DNA of 64,000 bases, from NCBI GenBank assembly GCA_012178725.1, contig GCA_012178725.1_3030.1. One strand, given 5' to 3'. Positions 1 through 53,821 of the stretch are shown one piece after another. Under the pieces are notes generated by a model, which was given only the letters and a program-made list of their open reading frames with translations, had not been told where the DNA came from and made no database searches. Both the position numbers and the translations under genes were made by a program. Origin of the DNA: a phage. The stretch's first letter is position 1; every line of letters starts with the position of its first letter.

Positions 1-1
1 A

Positions 2-3000
2 ATGGCCGAGATTAAAAGAAAGTTCAGAGCAGAAGATGGTCTGGACGCAGGTGGCGATAAAATAATCAACGTAGCTTTAGCTGATCGTGCCGTAGGAACT
101 GACGGTGTTAACGTTGATTACTTAATTCAAGAAAACACAGTTCAACAATACGATCCAACTCGTGGATATTTAAAAGATTTTGTAATCATTTATGATAACC
201 GCTTTTGGGCTGCTATAAATGATATTCCAAAACCAGCAGGAGCTTTTAATAGCGTACGCTGGAGAGCGTTACGTACTGATGCAAACTGGACAACTGTTTC
301 ATCAGGACCTTATCAATTAAAATCGGGTGAATCAATTTCAGTTGATACTGCAGCTGGTAATGACATTACATTTACTTTACCATCTACCCCAATTGACGGT
401 GATACTATCGTTCTCCAAGATATTGGAGGAAAACCTGGAGTTAATCAAGTTTTAATTACAGCTCCGGTACAAAGCATTGTAAATTTTAGAGGTCAGCAAG
501 TACGTTCAGTACTAATGACTCATCCAAAATCACAGATAGTTTTAATTTTTAGTAATCGTCTGTGGCAAATGTATGTCGCTGATTATAGTAGAGAAGCTGT
601 AGTTGTAACGCCTGCGAGTCTCTATCAGGCGCAATCAAACGATTTTATCGTACGTAGATTTACTTCTGCTTCAGCAATTAATATTAAACTTCCAAGATTT
701 GCCAATCATGGCGATATTATTAATTTCGTTGATTTGGATAAATTAAATCCTCTTTATCACACAATTGTTACTACATATGATGAAACAACTTCAGTACAAG
801 AAGTTGGAACTCATTCCATTGAAGGTCGTACATCGATTGACGGTTTCTTGATGTTTGATGATAATGACAAATTGTGGAGATTGTTTGACGGGGATAGTAA
901 AGCACGTTTACGCATTATAACAACTAATTCTAATATTCGTCCAAATGAAGAAGTCATGGTATTTGGCGCGAATAATGGAACAACCCAAACAATTGAACTT
1001 CAGCTTCCGACTGATATTTCTGTTGGTGATACTGTCAAAATTTCCATGAATTACATGAGAAAAGGACAAACAGTTAAAATCAAAGCTGCCGGTGAAGATA
1101 AAATTGCTTCTTCAGTTCAATTGCTGCAATTTCCAAAACGTTCAGAATACCCACCTGAAACTAAATGGGTGACTGTTCAAGAATTAGTTTTTAATGGCGA
1201 AACCAATTATGTTCCAGTTTTACAGCTTGCTTATATCGAAGATTCCGATGGAAAATATTGGGTTGTACAGCAAAACGTTCCAACTGTAGAAAGAGTAGAC
1301 TCTTTAAATAATTCTACTAGAGCAAGATTAGGCGTAATTGCTTTAGCTACACAGGCTCAAGCTAATGCTGATCTAGAAAATTCTCCACAAAAAGAACTGG
1401 CAATTACTCCAGAAACGTTAGCTAATCGTACTGCTACAGAAACTCGTAGAGGTATTGCAAGAATAGCAACAACTGCGCAAGTAAACCAGGATACCACATT
1501 CTCTTTTGCAGATGACCTTATCATCACTCCTAAAAAGTTGAATGAAAGAACTGCTACAGAAACTCGTAGGGGTGTCGCTGAAATTGCTACGCAGCAAGAA
1601 ACTAATACAGGAACCGATGATACTACAATCATCACTCCTAAAAAGCTTCAAGCTCGCCAAGGTTCTGAATCATTATCTGGTATTGTAACCTTTGTATCTA
1701 CTGCAGGAGCTACTCCAGCTTCTAGCCGTGAATTAAATGGTACGAATGTTTATAATAAAAACACTAATAATTTAGTTGTTTCACCTAAAGCTTTGGATCA
1801 GTATAAAGCTACTCCAACACAGCAAGGTGCAGTAATTTTAGCAGTTGAAAGTGAAGTAATTGCTGGACAAAGTCAGGAAGGATGGGCAAATGTGGTTGTA
1901 ACGCCAGAAACGTTACATAAAAAGACATCAACTGATGGAAGAATTGGTTTAATTGAAATTGCTACGCAAAGTGAAGTTAACACAGGAACTGATTATACTC
2001 GTGCAGTCACTCCTAAAACTTTAAATGACCGTAGAGCAACTGAAAGTTTAAGTGGTATAGCTGAAATTGCTACGCAAGTTGAATTCGACGCAGGCGTCGA
2101 CGATACTCGTATCTCTACACCATTAAAAATTAAAACTAGATTTAATAGTACTGATCGTACTTCTGTTGTTGCTCTATCTGGATTAGTTGAATCAGGAACT
2201 CTCTGGGACCATTATACCCTTAATATTCTTGAAGCAAATGAGACACAACGTGGTACACTTCGTGTAGCTACACAGGTCGAAGCTGCTGCAGGAACATTAG
2301 ATAATGTTTTAATAACTCCTAAAAAGCTTTTAGGTACTAAATCTACTGAAGCGCAAGAAGGTGTTATTAAAGTTGCAACTCAGTCTGAAACTGTGACTGG
2401 AACGTCAACAAATACTGCTGTATCTCCAAAAAATTTAAAATGGATTGTGCAGAGTGAACCTACTTGGGCAGCAACTACTCTGATAAGAGGTTTTGTTAAA
2501 ACTTCATCTGGTTCAATTACGTTCGTTGGTAATGATACAGTAGGTTCAACACAGCCATTAGAATCATATGAGAAAAATGGTTATGCAGTATCACCATATG
2601 AATTAAACCGTGTATTAGCAAATTATTTGCCGTTAAAAGCAAAAGCTGCTGATACAAATTTATTGGATGGTCTAGATTCATCTCAGTTCATTCGTAGGGA
2701 TATTGCGCAGACAGTTAATGGTTCACTAACCTTAACCCAACAAACGAATCTGAGTGCCCCTCTTGTATCATCTAGTACTGCTACGTTCGGTGGATCAGTT
2801 TCAGCAAATAGTACATTAACTATTTCTAATACTGGAACAGCAACTCGATTGATTTTTGAGAAAGGACCTCAAACTGGAACAAACCCAGCCCAAACGATGA
2901 CTGTTAGAGTGTGGGGAAATCAATTTAGTGGGGAATTAGATACAACACGTTCTACCGTATTTGAAGTTAGTGATGAAACATCTAGTCATTTTTATTCTCA

Positions 3001-3871
3001 GCGCAATAAAGCCGGAAATATAACATTTAATATCAACGGTACAGTAACACCGATAAATGTTAATGCTTCAGGAACATTGAATGCAAATGGCGTAGCAACA
3101 TTTGGTAATTCAGTCACTGCAACTGGTGAAATTATTTCTCGAAGCGCAAATGCTTTCCGTGCTATTAACGGAAATTATGGTTTCATTGTTCGCAACGATG
3201 GATCAGTAACGAATTTTATGCTTACTGCATCGGGTGATCAGACTGGTGGATTCAATGGATTACGTCCTTTAGCTATCAATAATGCATCTGGTCAAGTAAC
3301 AATTGGCGAAAGTTTAATTATTGCCAAAGGTGCTACTATAAATTCAGGCGGTTTGACTGTTAACTCGAGAATTCGTTCTCAGGGTACTAAAACATCTGAT
3401 TTATATACCCGTGCACCAACATCTGAAACTGTAGGATTCTGGTCAATTGATATTAACGATTCAGCCACTTATAACCAGTTCCCGGGTTATTTTAAAATGG
3501 TTGAAAAAACTAATGAAGTGACTGGACTTCCATACTTAGAACGTGGCGAAGAAGTTAAATCTCCTGGTACACTGACTCAGTTTGGTAACACACTTGATTC
3601 GCTTTACCAAGATTGGATTACTTATCCAACGACACCAGAAGCGCGTACTACTCGCTGGACACGTACATGGCAGAAAACCAAAAGCTCTTGGTCAAGTTTT
3701 GTTCAGGTATTTGACGGAGGTAACCCTCCTCAACCATCTGATATCGGTGCTTTACCATCTGATAATGCTACAATGGGGAATCTTACTATTCGTGATTTCT
3801 TACGAATTGGTAATGTTCGCATTATTCCTGACCCAGTGAATAAAACTGTTAAATTTGAATGGGTTGAATAA
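2..3871 (+). CDS. 34: Long tail fiber proximal subunit gp34
   Basis: 1289-aa ORF starting MAEIKRKFRAEDGLDAGG; length and sequence match T4 gp34 as recalled; followed by 35-36-37-38. Confidence 0.95.
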   Translation: MAEIKRKFRAEDGLDAGGDKIINVALADRAVGTDGVNVDYLIQENTVQQYDPTRGYLKDFVIIYDNRFWAAINDIPKPAGAFNSVRWRALRTDANWTTVSSGPYQLKSGESISVDTAAGNDITFTLPSTPIDGDTIVLQDIGGKPGVNQVLITAPVQSIVNFRGQQVRSVLMTHPKSQIVLIFSNRLWQMYVADYSREAVVVTPASLYQAQSNDFIVRRFTSASAINIKLPRFANHGDIINFVDLDKLNPLYHTIVTTYDETTSVQEVGTHSIEGRTSIDGFLMFDDNDKLWRLFDGDSKARLRIITTNSNIRPNEEVMVFGANNGTTQTIELQLPTDISVGDTVKISMNYMRKGQTVKIKAAGEDKIASSVQLLQFPKRSEYPPETKWVTVQELVFNGETNYVPVLQLAYIEDSDGKYWVVQQNVPTVERVDSLNNSTRARLGVIALATQAQANADLENSPQKELAITPETLANRTATETRRGIARIATTAQVNQDTTFSFADDLIITPKKLNERTATETRRGVAEIATQQETNTGTDDTTIITPKKLQARQGSESLSGIVTFVSTAGATPASSRELNGTNVYNKNTNNLVVSPKALDQYKATPTQQGAVILAVESEVIAGQSQEGWANVVVTPETLHKKTSTDGRIGLIEIATQSEVNTGTDYTRAVTPKTLNDRRATESLSGIAEIATQVEFDAGVDDTRISTPLKIKTRFNSTDRTSVVALSGLVESGTLWDHYTLNILEANETQRGTLRVATQVEAAAGTLDNVLITPKKLLGTKSTEAQEGVIKVATQSETVTGTSTNTAVSPKNLKWIVQSEPTWAATTLIRGFVKTSSGSITFVGNDTVGSTQPLESYEKNGYAVSPYELNRVLANYLPLKAKAADTNLLDGLDSSQFIRRDIAQTVNGSLTLTQQTNLSAPLVSSSTATFGGSVSANSTLTISNTGTATRLIFEKGPQTGTNPAQTMTVRVWGNQFSGELDTTRSTVFEVSDETSSHFYSQRNKAGNITFNINGTVTPINVNASGTLNANGVATFGNSVTATGEIISRSANAFRAINGNYGFIVRNDGSVTNFMLTASGDQTGGFNGLRPLAINNASGQVTIGESLIIAKGATINSGGLTVNSRIRSQGTKTSDLYTRAPTSETVGFWSIDINDSATYNQFPGYFKMVEKTNEVTGLPYLERGEEVKSPGTLTQFGNTLDSLYQDWITYPTTPEARTTRWTRTWQKTKSSWSSFVQVFDGGNPPQPSDIGALPSDNATMGNLTIRDFLRIGNVRIIPDPVNKTVKFEWVE
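1380..2460 (+). repeat. Tandem ~40-aa coding repeats in the gp34 shaft (TPxxL..RxATExxxG..IATQ motif, at least 6 copies)
   Basis: Motif RTATETRRG(I/V)A(R/E)IAT and ITPKKL recur in the translation; the repeats also generate the spurious antisense ORFs at 1357-1660. Confidence 0.8.
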
Positions 3872-3879
3872 GAGGTATT

Positions 3880-4995
3880 ATGGAAAAATTTATGGCAGAG
3901 TTTGGACAAGGATATGTCCAAACGCCATTTTTATCGGAAAGCAATTCAGTAAGATACAAAATAAGCATAGCGGGTTCTTGCCCGCTTTCTACAGCAGGAC
4001 CATACGTTAAATTTCAGGATAATCCTATCGGAAATCAAACATTTAGCGCAGGCCTTCATTTAAGAGTTTTTGACCCTTCCACCGGAGCATTAGTTGATAG
4101 TAAGTCATATGCTTTTTCGACTTCAAATGATACTACATCAGCTGCTTTTGTTAGTTTCATGAATTCTTTGACGAATAATCGAATTGTCGCTATATTAACT
4201 AGTGGAAAGGTTAATTTTCCTCCTGAAGTAGTATCTTGGCTAAGAACCGCCGGAACGTCTGCTTTTCCATCTGATTCTGTATTGTCAAGATTCGACGTAT
4301 CATATGCTGCTTTTTATACTTCTTCTAAAAGAGCTATTGCATTAGAGCATGTTAAATTAAGTAATAGAAAAAGCACAGATGATTATCAAACTATTTTAGA
4401 TGTTGTATTTGACAGTTTAGAAGACGTCGGAGCTACCGGGTTTCCAAGAAGAACGTATGAAAGTGTTGAGCAATTCATGTCGGCGGTTGGTGGAACTAAT
4501 AACGAAATTGCGCGTCTACCAACTTCAGCTGCTATAAGTAAATTATCTGATTATAATTTAATTCCTGGTGATGTTCTTTATCTTAAAGCACAGTTATATG
4601 CTGATGCTGATTTACTTGCTCTTGGAACTACAAATATATCTATCCGTTTTTATAATGCATCAAATGGATATATTTCTTCAACACAAGCTGAATTTACTGG
4701 GCAAGCTGGGTCATGGGAATTAAAGGAAGATTATGTAGTTGTTCCAGAAAACGCAGTAGGATTTACGATATATGCACAAAGAACTGCACAGGCTGGTCAA
4801 GGCGGCATGAGAAATTTAAGCTTTTCTGAAGTATCAAGAAATGGCGGAATTTCAAAACCTGCAGAATTTGGCGTCAATGGTATTCGAGTTAATTATGTCT
4901 GTGAATCCGCTTCACCTCCGGATATAATGGTACTTCCTACACAAGCATCGTCTAAAACTGGTAAAGTGTTTGGACAAGAATTTAGAGAAGTTTAA
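3880..4995 (+). CDS. 35: Long tail fiber hinge connector gp35
   Basis: 371-aa ORF 8 nt after gene 34; sequence matches T4 gp35 as recalled. Confidence 0.93.
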   Translation: MEKFMAEFGQGYVQTPFLSESNSVRYKISIAGSCPLSTAGPYVKFQDNPIGNQTFSAGLHLRVFDPSTGALVDSKSYAFSTSNDTTSAAFVSFMNSLTNNRIVAILTSGKVNFPPEVVSWLRTAGTSAFPSDSVLSRFDVSYAAFYTSSKRAIALEHVKLSNRKSTDDYQTILDVVFDSLEDVGATGFPRRTYESVEQFMSAVGGTNNEIARLPTSAAISKLSDYNLIPGDVLYLKAQLYADADLLALGTTNISIRFYNASNGYISSTQAEFTGQAGSWELKEDYVVVPENAVGFTIYAQRTAQAGQGGMRNLSFSEVSRNGGISKPAEFGVNGIRVNYVCESASPPDIMVLPTQASSKTGKVFGQEFREV

Positions 4996-5057: not shown

Positions 5058-5735
5058 ATGGCTGATTTAAAAGTAGGTTCAACAACTGGAGGCTCTGTCA
5101 TTTGGCATCAAGGAAATTTTCCATTGAATCCAGCCGGTGACGATGTACTCTATAAATCATTTAAAATATATACAGAATATAATAAACCACAAGCAACTGA
5201 TAACGATTTCGTTTCTAAAGCATCAGGTGGCACATATTTAAACAAAGTATCATTTAATGCAGGTGTACAAATCCCGTTTTCTAAAGACGGCGTAATTCAA
5301 ACAGGGAACATTAATGGTATTTTTCCTGGAGTTGATGATGGGGCCGATTTTACAGCAAACAACCTAGATATCGTTTCTTGGTATGGTGTTGGATTTAAAT
5401 CTTCATTAGGTAATTCAGGATATACGATATCCATTAATACTCGTACAGGCACAATTAATACTAAAGGCGGTGTTTACGCCTCTGGACAAGTTCGTTCAGA
5501 CATGGCTGCACCTGTTGCGGTTAACGATCTTACTCGTAAAGATTATGTTGATGGAGCAATAAATATTGTTACAGCAAACGCAAACTCTAGGGTATTACGC
5601 TCTGGAGACACTATGACAGGAAATTTAACTGCGCCAAACCTTTTTTCACAGAATCCTGCATCTCAACCCTCACATGTTCCACGATTTGACCAAATTGTTA
5701 TTAAGGATTCTGTTCAAGATTTCGGCTATTATTAA
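5058..5735 (+). CDS. 36: Long tail fiber distal connector gp36
   Basis: 225-aa ORF; N- and C-terminal sequence matches T4 gp36 as recalled. Confidence 0.93.
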   Translation: MADLKVGSTTGGSVIWHQGNFPLNPAGDDVLYKSFKIYTEYNKPQATDNDFVSKASGGTYLNKVSFNAGVQIPFSKDGVIQTGNINGIFPGVDDGADFTANNLDIVSWYGVGFKSSLGNSGYTISINTRTGTINTKGGVYASGQVRSDMAAPVAVNDLTRKDYVDGAINIVTANANSRVLRSGDTMTGNLTAPNLFSQNPASQPSHVPRFDQIVIKDSVQDFGYY

Positions 5736-5743
5736 GAGGACTT

Positions 5744-8700
5744 ATGGCTACTTTAAAACAAATACAATTTAAAAGAAGCAAAACTGCAGGAGCACGTCCT
5801 GCCGCTTCAGTATTAGCCGAAGGTGAATTGGCTATAAACTTAAAAGACCGTGTACTTTTTACTAAAGATGACCAAGGAAATATTATTGATCTGGGTTTTG
5901 CTAAAGGCGGTAGTATTGACGGGAATGTTATTCATACAGGCAATTATAACCAAACTGGCGATTATACTTTAAATGGCGTCTTCACTCAGACTGGTAATTT
6001 TAATTTAACTGGTATTGCTCGAGTAACTCGCGATATTATTGCCGCTGGGCAGATTATGACTGAAGGCGGAGAACTTATTACAAAAAGTTCAGGTACAGCG
6101 CATGTTCGTTTTTTCGATGGCAATAGTCGCGAACGTGGAATCATTTATGCCCCGGCTAATGACGGTTTAACTACACAAGTACTTAATATCAGGGTTCAAG
6201 ACTATGCCGCTGGCAGCGAAAGCACTTATGCATTTTCAGGCAGTGGCCTATTTACTTCACCTGAAGTATCAGCATGGAAATCTATTTCGTCTCCACAAAT
6301 TCTGACCAACAAAGTCATTACTAATAATAAATCTACGGGTGATTATGACATCTATTCGATGGCAGACAATGTTCCATTGTCTGAAAGCACTACTGCTATT
6401 AATCATCTTCGTGTCATGCGTAATGCCGTTGGTTCTGGTATTTTCCATGAAGTTAAAGATAATGATGGAATAACTTGGTATGCAGGTGATGGACTTGACA
6501 CCTATCTTTGGTCATTTACTTGGAGCGGCGGAATTAAATCAAGTCACTCAATTTCTATTGGTTTAACATCTGGTAGTAAAGATTATTCAATATTAGGACC
6601 ATCTAGTATTGCTTTAGGAGATAATGATACTGGATTTAAATGGCATCAAGATGGATATTATTTTAGCGTTAATAATGGAACAAAAACGTTTTTATTTAGT
6701 CCTAGCGAAACAACTAGCCTAAGAAAATTTGTAGCTGGATATTCTACTAACGGAACCGATTTAACTACTCCTCCAACTGAAAATTATGCTCTTGCTACTG
6801 TCGTGACATATCACGATAATAACGCGTTTGGAGATGGTCAGACTCTTTTAGGATATTATCAAGGCGGTAACTATCATCACTATTTCCGCGGCAAGGGTAC
6901 TACAAACATTAATACTCACGGCGGTTTGTTAGTTACTCCTGGTAATATTGACGTTATTGGTGGTTCTGTTAATATTGATGGTAGAAATAATGCTTCTACA
7001 CTGTTGTTTAGAGGTAACACAACTGGTAGTAGTTCAGTTGATAATATGACAATTTCCGTTTGGGGCAATACGTTTACTAATCCTAGTGAAGGCACCCGTA
7101 AAAATGTCATGGAAATTTCTGACGCAACTAGCTGGATGAGTTATATTCAAAGACTTACTACTGGTGAAGTAGAAATGAACGTTAACGGTTCATTTGAATC
7201 ATCCGGTGTTACTGCTGGAAATAGAGGAGTTCACACAACAGGCGAAATTTCATCTGGAGCAGTGAATGCTCTTCGCATTTGGAATGCAGATTATGGAGCT
7301 ATTTTTAGACGTTCAGAAGGTAGTCTTCATATTATTCCAACTGCTTATGGTGAAGGCAAAAATGGTGATATCGGTCCACTTCGTCCATTTAGTATTGCTT
7401 TGGATACTGGTAAGGTTGTTATTCCAGATTTAGAATCAAGTTATAACACGTTTGCTGCAAATGGCTACATTAAATTTGCTGGTCATGGCGCTGGCGCTGG
7501 TGGTTATGATATTCAGTATTCACAAGCTGCTCCTATTTTCCAAGAAATTGATGACGACGCTGTAAGCAAATATTATCCTATTGTTAAACAGAAGTTTCTA
7601 AACGGTAAATCCGTTTGGTCTTTAGGTACTGAAATTAATTCGGGTACATTCGTTATTCATCATCTGAAAGAAGATGGATCGCAGGGCCATACATCTCGTT
7701 TTAATCAAGACGGTACTGTTAACTTCCCGGATAACGTTCAGGTCGGCGGCGGTGAAGCTACTATTGCTCGTAATGGTAACATCTGGTCTGATATCTGGAA
7801 AACGTTTACTTCAGCAGGCGACGTAACTAATATTCGCGATGCTATTGCTACTCGCGTTGCCAAAGAAGGCGACACGATGACCGGCACTCTTTGGATTAAT
7901 AAAGATGCCGCTGGAATAGTTCTTAATCCTCCTTTGACCAGTGATTCATCATTTATTCGTTCTGATACGGCCGGGGCCAATAATTGGTATATTGGTAAAG
8001 GCGGTGCCGACAATGGTCTAGGTTTTTACAGTTACATTACACAAGGCGGTGTATACATAACAAATACCGGTGAAATATCGCTTTCTCCTCAAGGACAAGG
8101 AACATTTAATTTTAATAGAGACCGCCTTTATATAAATGCTAGTCAATGGGTTGCACATAAATCTGGCGCTTGGGGCGACCAATGGGGCTTAGAAGCTCCT
8201 GTATTTGTGGATTTTGGTAGTGTCAGTAATGACTGCTATTATCCTATTATTAAAGGAAAATCTGGTATTACTAACGAAGGATATTTTTCCGGCGTAGATT
8301 TTGGTATGCGACGCATTACTAATACATGGGCACAAGGTATTATTCGTGTAGGTAATCAGGAAAACGGTTCAGACCCACAAGCCATCTATGAATTCCACAG
8401 TAACGGTACTTTTTATGCCCCTAGCCTACTTAAGAGCAACAGAGTATCAGCAGGTGGCGGTGACCCTGTATGGGCCGGGCCATGTATTGTTCTTGGCGAT
8501 AATGACACAGGTCTAGTTTGGGAAGCAGATGGTATTTTCAACGCATATGCAAACGGCCAAGGTGTATTCAGTTTTAGAGCTGGTCTCGCACAAACATTCG
8601 GTAACGTAGCGTTAAACGTTAACGCAGGTATGTATGTTCGTGATAACATTGATGTTAACGACGTTTATATCCGTTCTGATATTCGTTGTAAGTCAGAAAT

Positions 8701-8995
8701 TAAGCTTATTAAGAACGCTCAAGAGAAATCTAAACTCTTAGGCGGCTATACTTATCTGCTTAAAAACTCTGTTACAGACGAAGTTAAACCATCTGCAGGT
8801 TTAATTGCTCAGGAAGTTCAAGAAGTATTGCCTGAACTTGTTTCTGAAGATAAAGAGACCGGACTGCTTCGTTTGAACTATAACGGTATTATCGGTTTAA
8901 ATACTGCTACAATCAACGAGCATACAGATGAAATCAAGGAATTGAAATCTGAAATTGCCGAATTGAAAGCATTAATTAAATCATTGATAAAATAA
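5744..8995 (+). CDS. 37: Long tail fiber distal subunit gp37 with C-terminal intramolecular chaperone domain
   Basis: 1083-aa ORF in the gene 37 position; last ~106 aa carry an SDxRxK autocleavage motif and a coiled-coil tail. Confidence 0.93.
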   Translation: MATLKQIQFKRSKTAGARPAASVLAEGELAINLKDRVLFTKDDQGNIIDLGFAKGGSIDGNVIHTGNYNQTGDYTLNGVFTQTGNFNLTGIARVTRDIIAAGQIMTEGGELITKSSGTAHVRFFDGNSRERGIIYAPANDGLTTQVLNIRVQDYAAGSESTYAFSGSGLFTSPEVSAWKSISSPQILTNKVITNNKSTGDYDIYSMADNVPLSESTTAINHLRVMRNAVGSGIFHEVKDNDGITWYAGDGLDTYLWSFTWSGGIKSSHSISIGLTSGSKDYSILGPSSIALGDNDTGFKWHQDGYYFSVNNGTKTFLFSPSETTSLRKFVAGYSTNGTDLTTPPTENYALATVVTYHDNNAFGDGQTLLGYYQGGNYHHYFRGKGTTNINTHGGLLVTPGNIDVIGGSVNIDGRNNASTLLFRGNTTGSSSVDNMTISVWGNTFTNPSEGTRKNVMEISDATSWMSYIQRLTTGEVEMNVNGSFESSGVTAGNRGVHTTGEISSGAVNALRIWNADYGAIFRRSEGSLHIIPTAYGEGKNGDIGPLRPFSIALDTGKVVIPDLESSYNTFAANGYIKFAGHGAGAGGYDIQYSQAAPIFQEIDDDAVSKYYPIVKQKFLNGKSVWSLGTEINSGTFVIHHLKEDGSQGHTSRFNQDGTVNFPDNVQVGGGEATIARNGNIWSDIWKTFTSAGDVTNIRDAIATRVAKEGDTMTGTLWINKDAAGIVLNPPLTSDSSFIRSDTAGANNWYIGKGGADNGLGFYSYITQGGVYITNTGEISLSPQGQGTFNFNRDRLYINASQWVAHKSGAWGDQWGLEAPVFVDFGSVSNDCYYPIIKGKSGITNEGYFSGVDFGMRRITNTWAQGIIRVGNQENGSDPQAIYEFHSNGTFYAPSLLKSNRVSAGGGDPVWAGPCIVLGDNDTGLVWEADGIFNAYANGQGVFSFRAGLAQTFGNVALNVNAGMYVRDNIDVNDVYIRSDIRCKSEIKLIKNAQEKSKLLGGYTYLLKNSVTDEVKPSAGLIAQEVQEVLPELVSEDKETGLLRLNYNGIIGLNTATINEHTDEIKELKSEIAELKALIKSLIK

Positions 8996-9000
8996 TAAAA

Positions 9001-9014
9001 GGGCCTTCGGGCCC
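9001..9014 (+). promoter_or_regulatory. GC hairpin with UUCG loop between genes 37 and 38
   Basis: gggcc-ttcg-ggccc directly followed by the GGAGG ribosome-binding site and ATG of gene 38. Confidence 0.5.
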
Positions 9015-9025
9015 TGGAGGTTTTT

Positions 9026-9805
9026 ATGGCAGTAGTAGGAATTCCTGGTTGGATTGGGACTTCAGCCGTCGCTGAAACAGGCCAGCGCTGGATGTCAGCG
9101 GCCTCTAGAGAATTGCGTCTAGGGAACCCATCTTGGATGTCACAATTCGCTGGACGCTCAAGAGAAATTATTCACACGCTTGGAGCAGACCATAACTTCA
9201 ATGGTCAATGGTTTCGTGACCGTTGTTTTGAAGCCGGCGGTGCTCCTATAGTGTTTAATATCACAGGCAACTTAGTATCATATTCTAAAGACGTTCCTTT
9301 ATTCTTCATGTATGGTGATACTCCTAACGAATATGTTACTTTGAATATTCATGGTGGTGTTCATATGTGGGGCCGAGGTGGTAATGGTAGCGTAAATGGA
9401 AGCCCAGGCACTAATGGTGGCGACGTAATCCAAAATGATATTGGTGGACGACTTCGTATTTGGAACTATGGCGTTATTGCATCAGGCGGCGGCGGTGGTG
9501 GTGCAGTGTCATTACAGAATAGCTGGGCACCAAATGCTACAGCAGGTGGCGGTGGTGGTAGACCGTTTGGCATCGGCGGAGGCGGCGTTAATTGGCCGGG
9601 TGGTAATGCTAGTTATGACGCGCCTGGCGGTGCCGGTTACACTTCCCAATTCGGCGGAGGCAATGGCGGTGATGCTGGAGGTCGGGGTGGAGATGGATGG
9701 GGTAATCACTTATCTAGATCCGGCGGTGGTGCTCCAGGTAGAGCGGTATTCGGTTCTTCACCATCATGGGGTGCAACAGGCACGATCTACGGTTCCTGGA
9801 TTTAA
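9026..9805 (+). CDS. 38: Tail fiber adhesin gp38, T2-type with glycine-rich motifs
   Basis: 259-aa ORF with several poly-Gly runs ([20 protein letters not shown]); T4 gp38 is a shorter chaperone without these. Confidence 0.85.
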
Positions 9806-9850: not shown

Positions 9851-10507
9851 ATGGCAGCACCTAGAATATCATTTTCGCCCTCTGATATTCTATTTGGTGT
9901 TCTAGATCGCTTGTTCAAAGATAACGCTACCGGGAAAGTTCTTGCTTCCCGGGTAGCTGTCGTAATTCTTTTATTTATGATGGCGATTGTTTGGTATAGG
10001 GGAGATAGTTTCTTTGAGTACTATAAGCAATCAAAGTATGAAACATACAGTGAAATTATTGAAAAGGAAAGAAATGCACGCTTTGAATCTGTCGCCCTGG
10101 AACAACTCCAGATAGTTCACATATCATCTGAGGCAGACTTTAGTGCGGTGTATTCTTTCCGCCCTAAAAACTTAAACTATTTTGTTGATATTATAGCATA
10201 CGAAGGAAGATTACCTTCAACAATAACTGAAAAATCACTTGGAGGATATCCTGTTGATAAAACTATGGATGAATATGCAGTTCATTTAAATGGACGTCAT
10301 TATTATTCTGACTCAAAATTTGCTTTTTTACCAACTAAAAAGCCTACTCCCGAAATAAACTACATGTACAGTTGTCCATATTTTAATTTGGATAATATCT
10401 ATGCTGGAACAATAACCATGTACTGGTATAGAAATGATCATATAAGTAATGACCGCCTTGAATCAATATGTGCTCAGGCGGCCAGAATATTAGGAAGGGC
10501 TAAATAA
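9851..10507 (+). CDS. t: Holin
   Basis: 218-aa ORF matching T4 holin T in length and sequence as recalled; hydrophobic segment near N-terminus. Confidence 0.93.
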   Translation: MAAPRISFSPSDILFGVLDRLFKDNATGKVLASRVAVVILLFMMAIVWYRGDSFFEYYKQSKYETYSEIIEKERNARFESVALEQLQIVHISSEADFSAVYSFRPKNLNYFVDIIAYEGRLPSTITEKSLGGYPVDKTMDEYAVHLNGRHYYSDSKFAFLPTKKPTPEINYMYSCPYFNLDNIYAGTITMYWYRNDHISNDRLESICAQAARILGRAK

Positions 10508-52805: not shown

Positions 52806-53821
52806 TGTGTTGCCTCTACATATAGCTGATTTGCATATTGAATAAGTGCTTCACGATCAGAATCAGTGATGTCTGGAATTGCATTAATATACTCTTCCAT
52901 TAATGTCTGAAGCGATTGAACTTCAACTTCTTCACTGTCATCTGACTCGACAGAGTTATCAATCTTTGACACAACTCGTAATGAATGCACAACTTTTTCT
53001 AGTTCAGATTCGAACTTCGTTAGATTTTTGTCTACTTCAGTTACTATAACACGTACTGATAGATTTGTAAAATCTTTATAGTCAATTTTTCCCTTAAATG
53101 GATATTGAATTCGACGATGCCAGGTAGTGTTGTTTGGAATAAATTCCATTCGTTCTGTTTCTGTATCAAACATCCAGAACCCGCGAGGGTCATTCTCGTC
53201 ACCTGCAGTTAGTGTCCATGGTGTCCCAATATATCTGACGTTAGCAGCCTCAGAGATAGTATGGAAGTGACCAGACCACACCTCTTTATAAGTCTTAAGG
53301 AAATCAGGTTCAAGACCGTGAGATTTCATTCCTTTATAAAAATAAAATCCATTCAGTTCCCAGTGACCAACGCAAAAAGAAGCAGATGAAGTTTTGATGT
53401 GTTCAAGAATTTCACCAGTATTTTCTTCACACATCCAAGGAATTAAATCAATCAAACATCCGTCAAAATCTACTGTAGTAGGCTTATCATATACTTTAAC
53501 ATTAGGATATTTAGCCAAAAGCTCAGTAGAAGCATTTGGAGTTAAAGTATTTTTAAAGTGCATATCATGGTTTCCTACAACAGTATGCAGGGTAATACCA
53601 GCATCATCAAGCATTTGAACTATTTCACGGGCGAATTCCATAGTTTTATGTGTGATTGCTTTTCGCACATCAAAAATATCGCCGTATTGAATCCATGTAG
53701 TAATTCCATTTTTCTTAGAATATTCTATTGCCTGTTTAATTCCATCCAACTGAATGGATTGAACCCACTCATCATCGGCTTTAACACCTAAATGCCAATC
53801 ACCTAAATTTAAAATTTTCAT
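52802..53821 (-). CDS. 47: Recombination nuclease subunit gp47 (Mre11-like)
   Basis: 339-aa ORF with phosphoesterase motifs (GDWH, GNHD); length as T4 gp47. Confidence 0.93.
   Translation of the reverse strand: MKILNLGDWHLGVKADDEWVQSIQLDGIKQAIEYSKKNGITTWIQYGDIFDVRKAITHKTMEFAREIVQMLDDAGITLHTVVGNHDMHFKNTLTPNASTELLAKYPNVKVYDKPTTVDFDGCLIDLIPWMCEENTGEILEHIKTSSASFCVGHWELNGFYFYKGMKSHGLEPDFLKTYKEVWSGHFHTISEAANVRYIGTPWTLTAGDENDPRGFWMFDTETERMEFIPNNTTWHRRIQYPFKGKIDYKDFTNLSVRVIVTEVDKNLTKFESELEKVVHSLRVVSKIDNSVESDDSEEVEVQSLQTLMEEYINAIPDITDSDREALIQYANQLYVEATQ

Follow-up and report, generated by a model that had tools for sequence, protein, structure and literature searches.

A predicted self-cleaving intramolecular chaperone domain at the C terminus of the long tail fibre protein gp37 of a T-even phage

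Gene 37 of a 64,000-nucleotide stretch of phage DNA (GenBank assembly GCA_012178725.1, contig GCA_012178725.1_3030.1; hereafter the window) encodes the precursor of the long tail fibre distal subunit, gp37. The gene (5744..8995) specifies 1083 amino acids (aa) with a mass of 116.6 kDa, as judged from the open reading frame (ORF) listing and from megablast matches to genes that are annotated as "long tail fiber distal subunit" in Tequatrovirus phages. Residues 978–1083 of gp37 very probably form an intramolecular chaperone (IMC) domain at the C terminus, one that belongs to the Peptidase_S74 or endosialidase-chaperone family and is predicted by homology to be self-cleaving. This domain (8675..8992, 106 aa, 11.75 kDa) was recognized by Pfam, by phmmer, and by a profile search, and it is predicted to be released from the fibre protein. 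All features of genes 37 and 38 described here lie on the + strand.

A first-pass annotation of the window, made from the sequence alone, had proposed an autoproteolytic chaperone domain at this position and suggested a profile search for Peptidase_S74. In this search, PF13884 (Peptidase_S74, "Chaperone of endosialidase") matched the C-terminal fragment of gp37 with 50.6 bits (E 2.4e-13) and the whole protein with 45.4 bits, compared with a curated gathering score of 22 bits. The alignment covers positions 1–57 of the 58 positions of the profile, and position 1 falls exactly on Ser-978. The Peptidase_S74 core extends over aa 978–1033 (8675..8842) and includes the conserved AGLIAQEV motif. In the homologue alignment, the core elements G..AGLIAQ.V..LPE.V and LNYN are invariant.

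We searched all PDB sequences with the last 164 aa of gp37 by phmmer and retrieved the gp37 construct of Salmonella phage S16 (6F45_A, E 3.4e-28). The two sequences align collinearly, beginning in the tip region (NDTGL...) and continuing through the last residue, and the ∼60 aa before the domain align to the β-helical tip of S16 gp37 in 6F45. The domain is located at the extreme C terminus of gp37, directly after this region aligned to the β-structured tip. The ICA domain of MyRF (PDB code 7DC3) was also detected by phmmer (E 0.015). A profile of ten homologues searched against the PDB matched 7DC3 with E 2e-08 and the phage tail fibre 8JOV with E 1.9e-06, and it aligned the phi29 gp12 autochaperone 3GUD with a non-significant E of 0.53.

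By tblastn, a homologue of the domain is found in 1563 phage records, nearly all of them tail fibre or tailspike genes, and one of these records carries the annotation "chaperone of endosialidase". The domain of vB-Eco-KMB39 has the same sequence (100% identity), and that of Bp7 shows 97% identity. Identity is at least 95% in 44 deposited phages; after a gap follow 9 records with 80–90% identity, and most others show ∼60%. A protein homologue search with the 116-aa C terminus returned 12 proteins, all of which are short ORF calls (87–170 aa).

The domain starts with the motif SDIRCK (aa 978–983, 8675..8692), which is present in a single copy in gp37. The codon of Ser-978 occupies nucleotides 8675–8677, and from there through the last codon (8992) gp37 comprises 106 residues, followed by the stop codon at 8993–8995; the first-pass annotation had given both the coordinate and the residue count exactly. 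We predict that the scissile bond is R977–S978 (codons cgt tct, 8672..8677), based on the sequence, on the start of the Pfam profile, and on the released fragment of phi29 gp12, whose chain in 3GUD has the equivalent serine as its first residue (SDERHK). The junction in the window protein, DVYIR-SDIRCK, is of the published type (..VYIR, then SD.R.K). A cut N-terminal to Ser-978, in line with the position of this residue and with published cuts, would yield a mature gp37 of aa 1–977 (5744..8674, 104.8 kDa) that ends in ...DVYIR. The earlier figure of 977 aa for the mature protein is arithmetically correct for such a cut.

The bare motif S-D-x-R-x-K is not sufficient evidence by itself, because a six-frame translation of the 64-kb window contains a second, meaningless occurrence. 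This other copy (SDQRKK, 53362–53379, + strand) runs into a stop codon a few residues on and was rejected as a chance match. The motif had been taken as the signature of endosialidase/T5-type chaperones. This description fits T5 pb1 (SDARLK), and T2 (SDIRLK) and S16 (SDRRIK) have the same form, but it does not fit endosialidase K1F, which reads S911-NGER-K916. The defining element is therefore a serine with a lysine at +5.

Endosialidase-type chaperones cut via a Ser-Lys dyad, in which Ser-911 and Lys-916 of endoNF are equivalent to Ser-587 and Lys-592 of MyRF (PMC8326128). Ser-978 and Lys-983, the predicted catalytic dyad of the window protein, align to these dyad positions of MyRF in 7DC3, where SDIRCK is matched by ADLRAK. 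The crystallized sequence of 7DC3 thus has an alanine in place of Ser-978, and we interpret it as the S587A variant. All nine alignment rows that span the site (the window sequence being one of the nine) retain Ser and Lys(+5). Mutating either dyad residue blocks cleavage in both MyRF and endoNF, and cleavage by endosialidase-type chaperone domains needs the trimer (PMC8326128, PMC3742440).

Alternatively, the IMC-type folding module may be genuine but be removed by a separate protease of the host or the phage and not by its own dyad. The original work on T2 by Drexler and colleagues in 1986 reportedly showed the processing with no protease identified, which would leave room for such an enzyme. 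Against it speak the presence and conservation of both dyad residues in the window gp37 and the loss of cleavage in MyRF and endoNF when the equivalent residues are mutated. In addition, the domain of S16 is described as autocleaved in PMC7289586 and in PMC7917993. We consider removal by a separate protease unlikely.

The domain ends in a predicted α-helix with a heptad repeat (aa 1046–1082, 8879..8989), presumably a trimerizing coiled coil, as indicated by AlphaFold2 and by the heptad count. Within the last 28 residues, seven of the eight a and d positions of one register are occupied by Ile or Leu, and the AlphaFold2 monomer shows a continuous helix over aa 1046–1082 (model residues 79–115; pLDDT of 83–95 for this block). 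The heptad-like terminal helix of the first-pass annotation is therefore borne out. From the N terminus, the model is composed of a short helix, a β-hairpin, a helix, a second hairpin, and the long C-terminal helix. Its mean pLDDT of 74.5 refers to a monomer, whereas three intertwined chains make up the native domain, and the shallow homologue alignment probably limited the quality of the model. As far as a monomer allows, the model is compatible with the fold of the solved IMC/ICA domains (3GW6, 7DC3). Trimerization of MyRF is driven mainly by its C-terminal triple coiled coil (PMC8326128). Weak Pfam matches to CDC37_C, TMF_TATA_bd, and FapA on the coiled-coil tail lie below their cut-offs and were discarded as low-complexity helix matches.

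Gene 37 is followed by gene 38 (9026..9805), which encodes a T2/S16-type adhesin of 259 aa. Pfam assigns the protein to PF05268 (GP38, E 5.1e-83) and its N terminus to PF21721 (Gp38_N, E 7.6e-21), and the sequence features three N-terminal tryptophans, Trp-9, Trp-22, and Trp-37. The gp38 of S16 attaches via three tryptophans to the base of the β-helix of gp37 (PMC6851490). The three tryptophans of the window gp38 fit this mode of docking, and they may be the structural equivalents of those in S16.

This partner bears on whether the chaperone domain leaves the fibre at all. The domain could also stay uncleaved on the mature fibre and serve there in trimerization, with gp38 bound elsewhere or alongside. 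Nothing specific favours retention, apart from the low confidence of AlphaFold2 around the cleavage site. A retained domain would occupy the gp38 docking face, which disfavours this possibility: the window gp38 has both the Gp38_N domain and three tryptophans that fit those with which S16 gp38 contacts the base of the β-helix. Furthermore, the docking face of S16 is described as bared only once the IMC has been removed (PMC7917993), and gp37 of T2 and T6 is reported to be cleaved before it is capped by gp38 (PMC3157838). Retention appears slightly less probable still than removal by a separate protease. The first-pass annotation had related the domain to the removal of the gp37 C terminus in T2-type fibres; this fits, because T2 gp37 has a corresponding domain.

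Release by self-cleavage, the reading that we prefer, would proceed as follows. The heptad helices of three gp37 chains would assemble into a coiled coil and thereby set the chains in register. The coiled coil would nucleate the folding of the trimeric β-structured fibre tip, starting from the C-terminal end. Once the tip is folded, Ser-978 of each chain, activated by Lys-983, would cut its own R977–S978 bond. The chaperone trimer (∼3 × 11.75 kDa) would depart and bare a flat tip made of three DVYIR strands. On this tip of the 104.8-kDa mature gp37, gp38 could dock by its N-terminal attachment domain, which has three helices and three tryptophans, and the docked gp38 would provide receptor binding. 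For the window phage, the nucleation of the trimer, the self-cleavage, the release, and the order of these events are extrapolated from the homologous systems.

Three points weigh against self-cleavage in the window phage. Cleavage in this phage is deduced from homology. Around the cleavage site, the AlphaFold2 model shows disorder (pLDDT <50, model residues 1–15). Finally, a cysteine (Cys-982, 8687–8689) is located between the Arg and the Lys of the motif, where V, S, or L is found in the other aligned homologues and L in T2 and T5. This last argument is weak, because the position varies.

The cysteine could nevertheless have a function. In a distinct Bp7/KMB39 subtype, to which the window domain would belong together with those of the 44 phages with at least 95% identity, the Cys in the catalytic loop and the longer coiled coil might alter the timing or control of cleavage (e.g. 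by redox), or the released trimer might have a second role. Judged from the sequence, we give such a specialization little credence, even less than the retention of the domain. That the resemblance is merely a short-motif match by chance plus a generic coiled coil, as the shortness of S-D-x-R-x-K and its second copy at 53362 might suggest, is excluded for practical purposes by the E-values of the Pfam (2.4e-13) and 6F45 (3.4e-28) matches, and it is at odds with the concentration of the 1563 phage records in tail fibre and tailspike genes.

Within the window lies the module for the long tail fibre of a phage of the T-even type (Tequatrovirus). Gene 37 is preceded by ORFs at 3880..4995 and 5058..5735, which sit where the T2 record has genes 35 and 36, and gene 38 is followed by an ORF at 9851..10507 at the position of holin t. 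RB18 shares 97% identity with 24 kb of the window backbone. The best nucleotide identity of the 37–38 region to deposited phages, e.g. PECP20, is 92%. From these sequence comparisons, we regard the locus 5744–9805 as mosaic. The match to vB-Eco-KMB39 covers query bases 1–3605 with 94.9% identity and ends within gene 38, although the chaperone domain is identical in the two phages, indicating that the specificity region of gp38 is of different origin.

The shaft of gp37 contains a further Pfam match, PF21446 Gp34_trimer, at aa 450–551 (7091–7396; 33.2 bits, cut-off 27). In Pfam, this family represents a trimerization domain of the proximal long-tail-fibre subunit, and the match suggests a domain common to the gp34 and gp37 shafts. 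Five of the protein homologues (P0001–P0005) are short ORF calls of 121–170 aa named "tail fiber domain-containing protein" on ∼166-kb contigs labelled Escherichia coli. They correspond to gp37 C termini that begin at internal Met codons, and P0001 equals M963–K1083 of the window gp37. On these contigs, gene 37 looks split or miscalled in its upstream part; the ORF in the window is intact.

Between the stop codon of gene 37 and the Shine-Dalgarno sequence of gene 38 (GGAGG), the window sequence contains a hairpin, AGGGCC-TTCG-GGCCCT (9000..9015, + strand). The G+C-rich stem of 6 bp carries a TTCG loop, and the hairpin appeared terminator-like on both strands in our scan; the sequence of the 37–38 junction is GGAGGTTTTTATG. 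At the equivalent place, T2 (T2 locus 8067–8082) also has a hairpin with a TTCG loop but with a different stem, GAGGGC-TTCG-GCCCTC, indicating that the stem is kept by compensatory changes. The window hairpin is probably a stable C(UUCG)G intercistronic hairpin of the kind long known in T4-type phages.

Setting the predicted C terminus of mature gp37 at Arg-977 defines the surface on which gp38 would dock. This is of use for annotation, for virion proteomics (a protein of ∼105 kDa is expected, not one of 117 kDa), and for the engineering of chimeric tail fibres, where swaps of gp37 and gp38 must not disrupt the DVYIR junction or the chaperone domain. In many database records, the whole ORF is labelled "long tail fiber distal subunit" and a mature-peptide feature is lacking. 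A self-cleaving chaperone on gp37 is already known, the concept having been published for S16 and the processing for T2. Likewise, a published prediction covers this type of junction in Tequatrovirus phages, Pfam already has the family, and one deposited genome encodes an identical domain. What is particular to the window protein is confined to the Cys of the motif and to a coiled coil that is ∼11 residues longer than that of T2, both without evident significance.

Among the systems with which the window gp37 can be compared, that of S16, whose gp37 tip is the closest solved relative, offers a described cut. The last 113 residues of S16 gp37 constitute an IMC that is autocleaved after trimerization at DLNVS^SDRRIKK, and this autocleavage exposes the docking face for gp38 (PMC7917993, and Dunne et al. 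2018 as summarized there). The two domains share the protein, the C-terminal position, the S-D-x-R-x-K start, the AGLIAQEV core, and the terminal helix, and in both phages an adhesin of the GP38 family follows gp37, which in S16 docks after cleavage. In contrast to the 106 aa of the window domain, the S16 domain has 113 aa with a small insertion, and the cut is preceded by DLNVS instead of DVYIR. The sequences have diverged substantially but are still clearly alignable.

T2 gp37 (LC348380) likewise has a Peptidase_S74 domain at its C terminus (aa 1243–1341; 60.8 bits, start at Ser-1243, NVYIR-SDIRLK) and gp38 next to it, and gp38 is reported to cap gp37 of T2 and T6 after its cleavage (PMC3157838). 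However, the T2 domain shows only ∼35–38% identity to that of the window, and its 99 aa do not include the last ∼11 residues of the heptad helix of the window protein. The full T2 protein is also longer (1341 aa versus 1083 aa). The Yersinia Tequatrovirus phages fPS-2/-65/-90 have a predicted cut at DVYIR^SDGRLKI in gp37, and three DVYIR strands would form a flat tip that takes the tryptophans of gp38 (PMC7917993). The junction DVYIR-SD and the gp38 adhesins are thus common to these phages and the window, whereas the motif differs (SDGRLK versus SDIRCK); both cuts are predictions.

For the more distant comparators, inclusion of T5 and K1F in a MAFFT alignment put the motif at the N terminus a few columns out of register, and we therefore used the coordinates of the Pfam profile for the domain starts. 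In T2, T5, and K1F, the start of Peptidase_S74 is the known or expected cleavage serine. The L-shaped tail fibre pb1 of T5 resembles the window gp37 in that the Peptidase_S74 domain is located at the C terminus of a fibre (40.5 bits, start at Ser-1264, SDARLK), and it is listed among the autoproteolytic C-terminal IMC domains (PMC7289586). Identity of the T5 domain to that of the window is ∼15%, and the T5 record annotates pb1 as binding the O-antigen. The tip of the mature T5 fibre itself binds the receptor, and T5 is not known to have a gp38-like cap.

The endosialidase of K1F (endoNF, PDB code 3GW6), the founding member of Peptidase_S74, bears the domain on a tailspike enzyme and not on a fibre. 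Its domain scores 39.6 bits, and profile position 1 extrapolates to Ser-911 of SNGERK916, which takes the place of SDxRxK. With 154 aa, the K1F domain exceeds that of the window in length and contains large insertions, and the pairwise identity to the window domain is ∼8–11% in alignments that are partly misregistered. The ICA domain of MyRF (PDB code 7DC3) is a eukaryotic homologue of the window domain.

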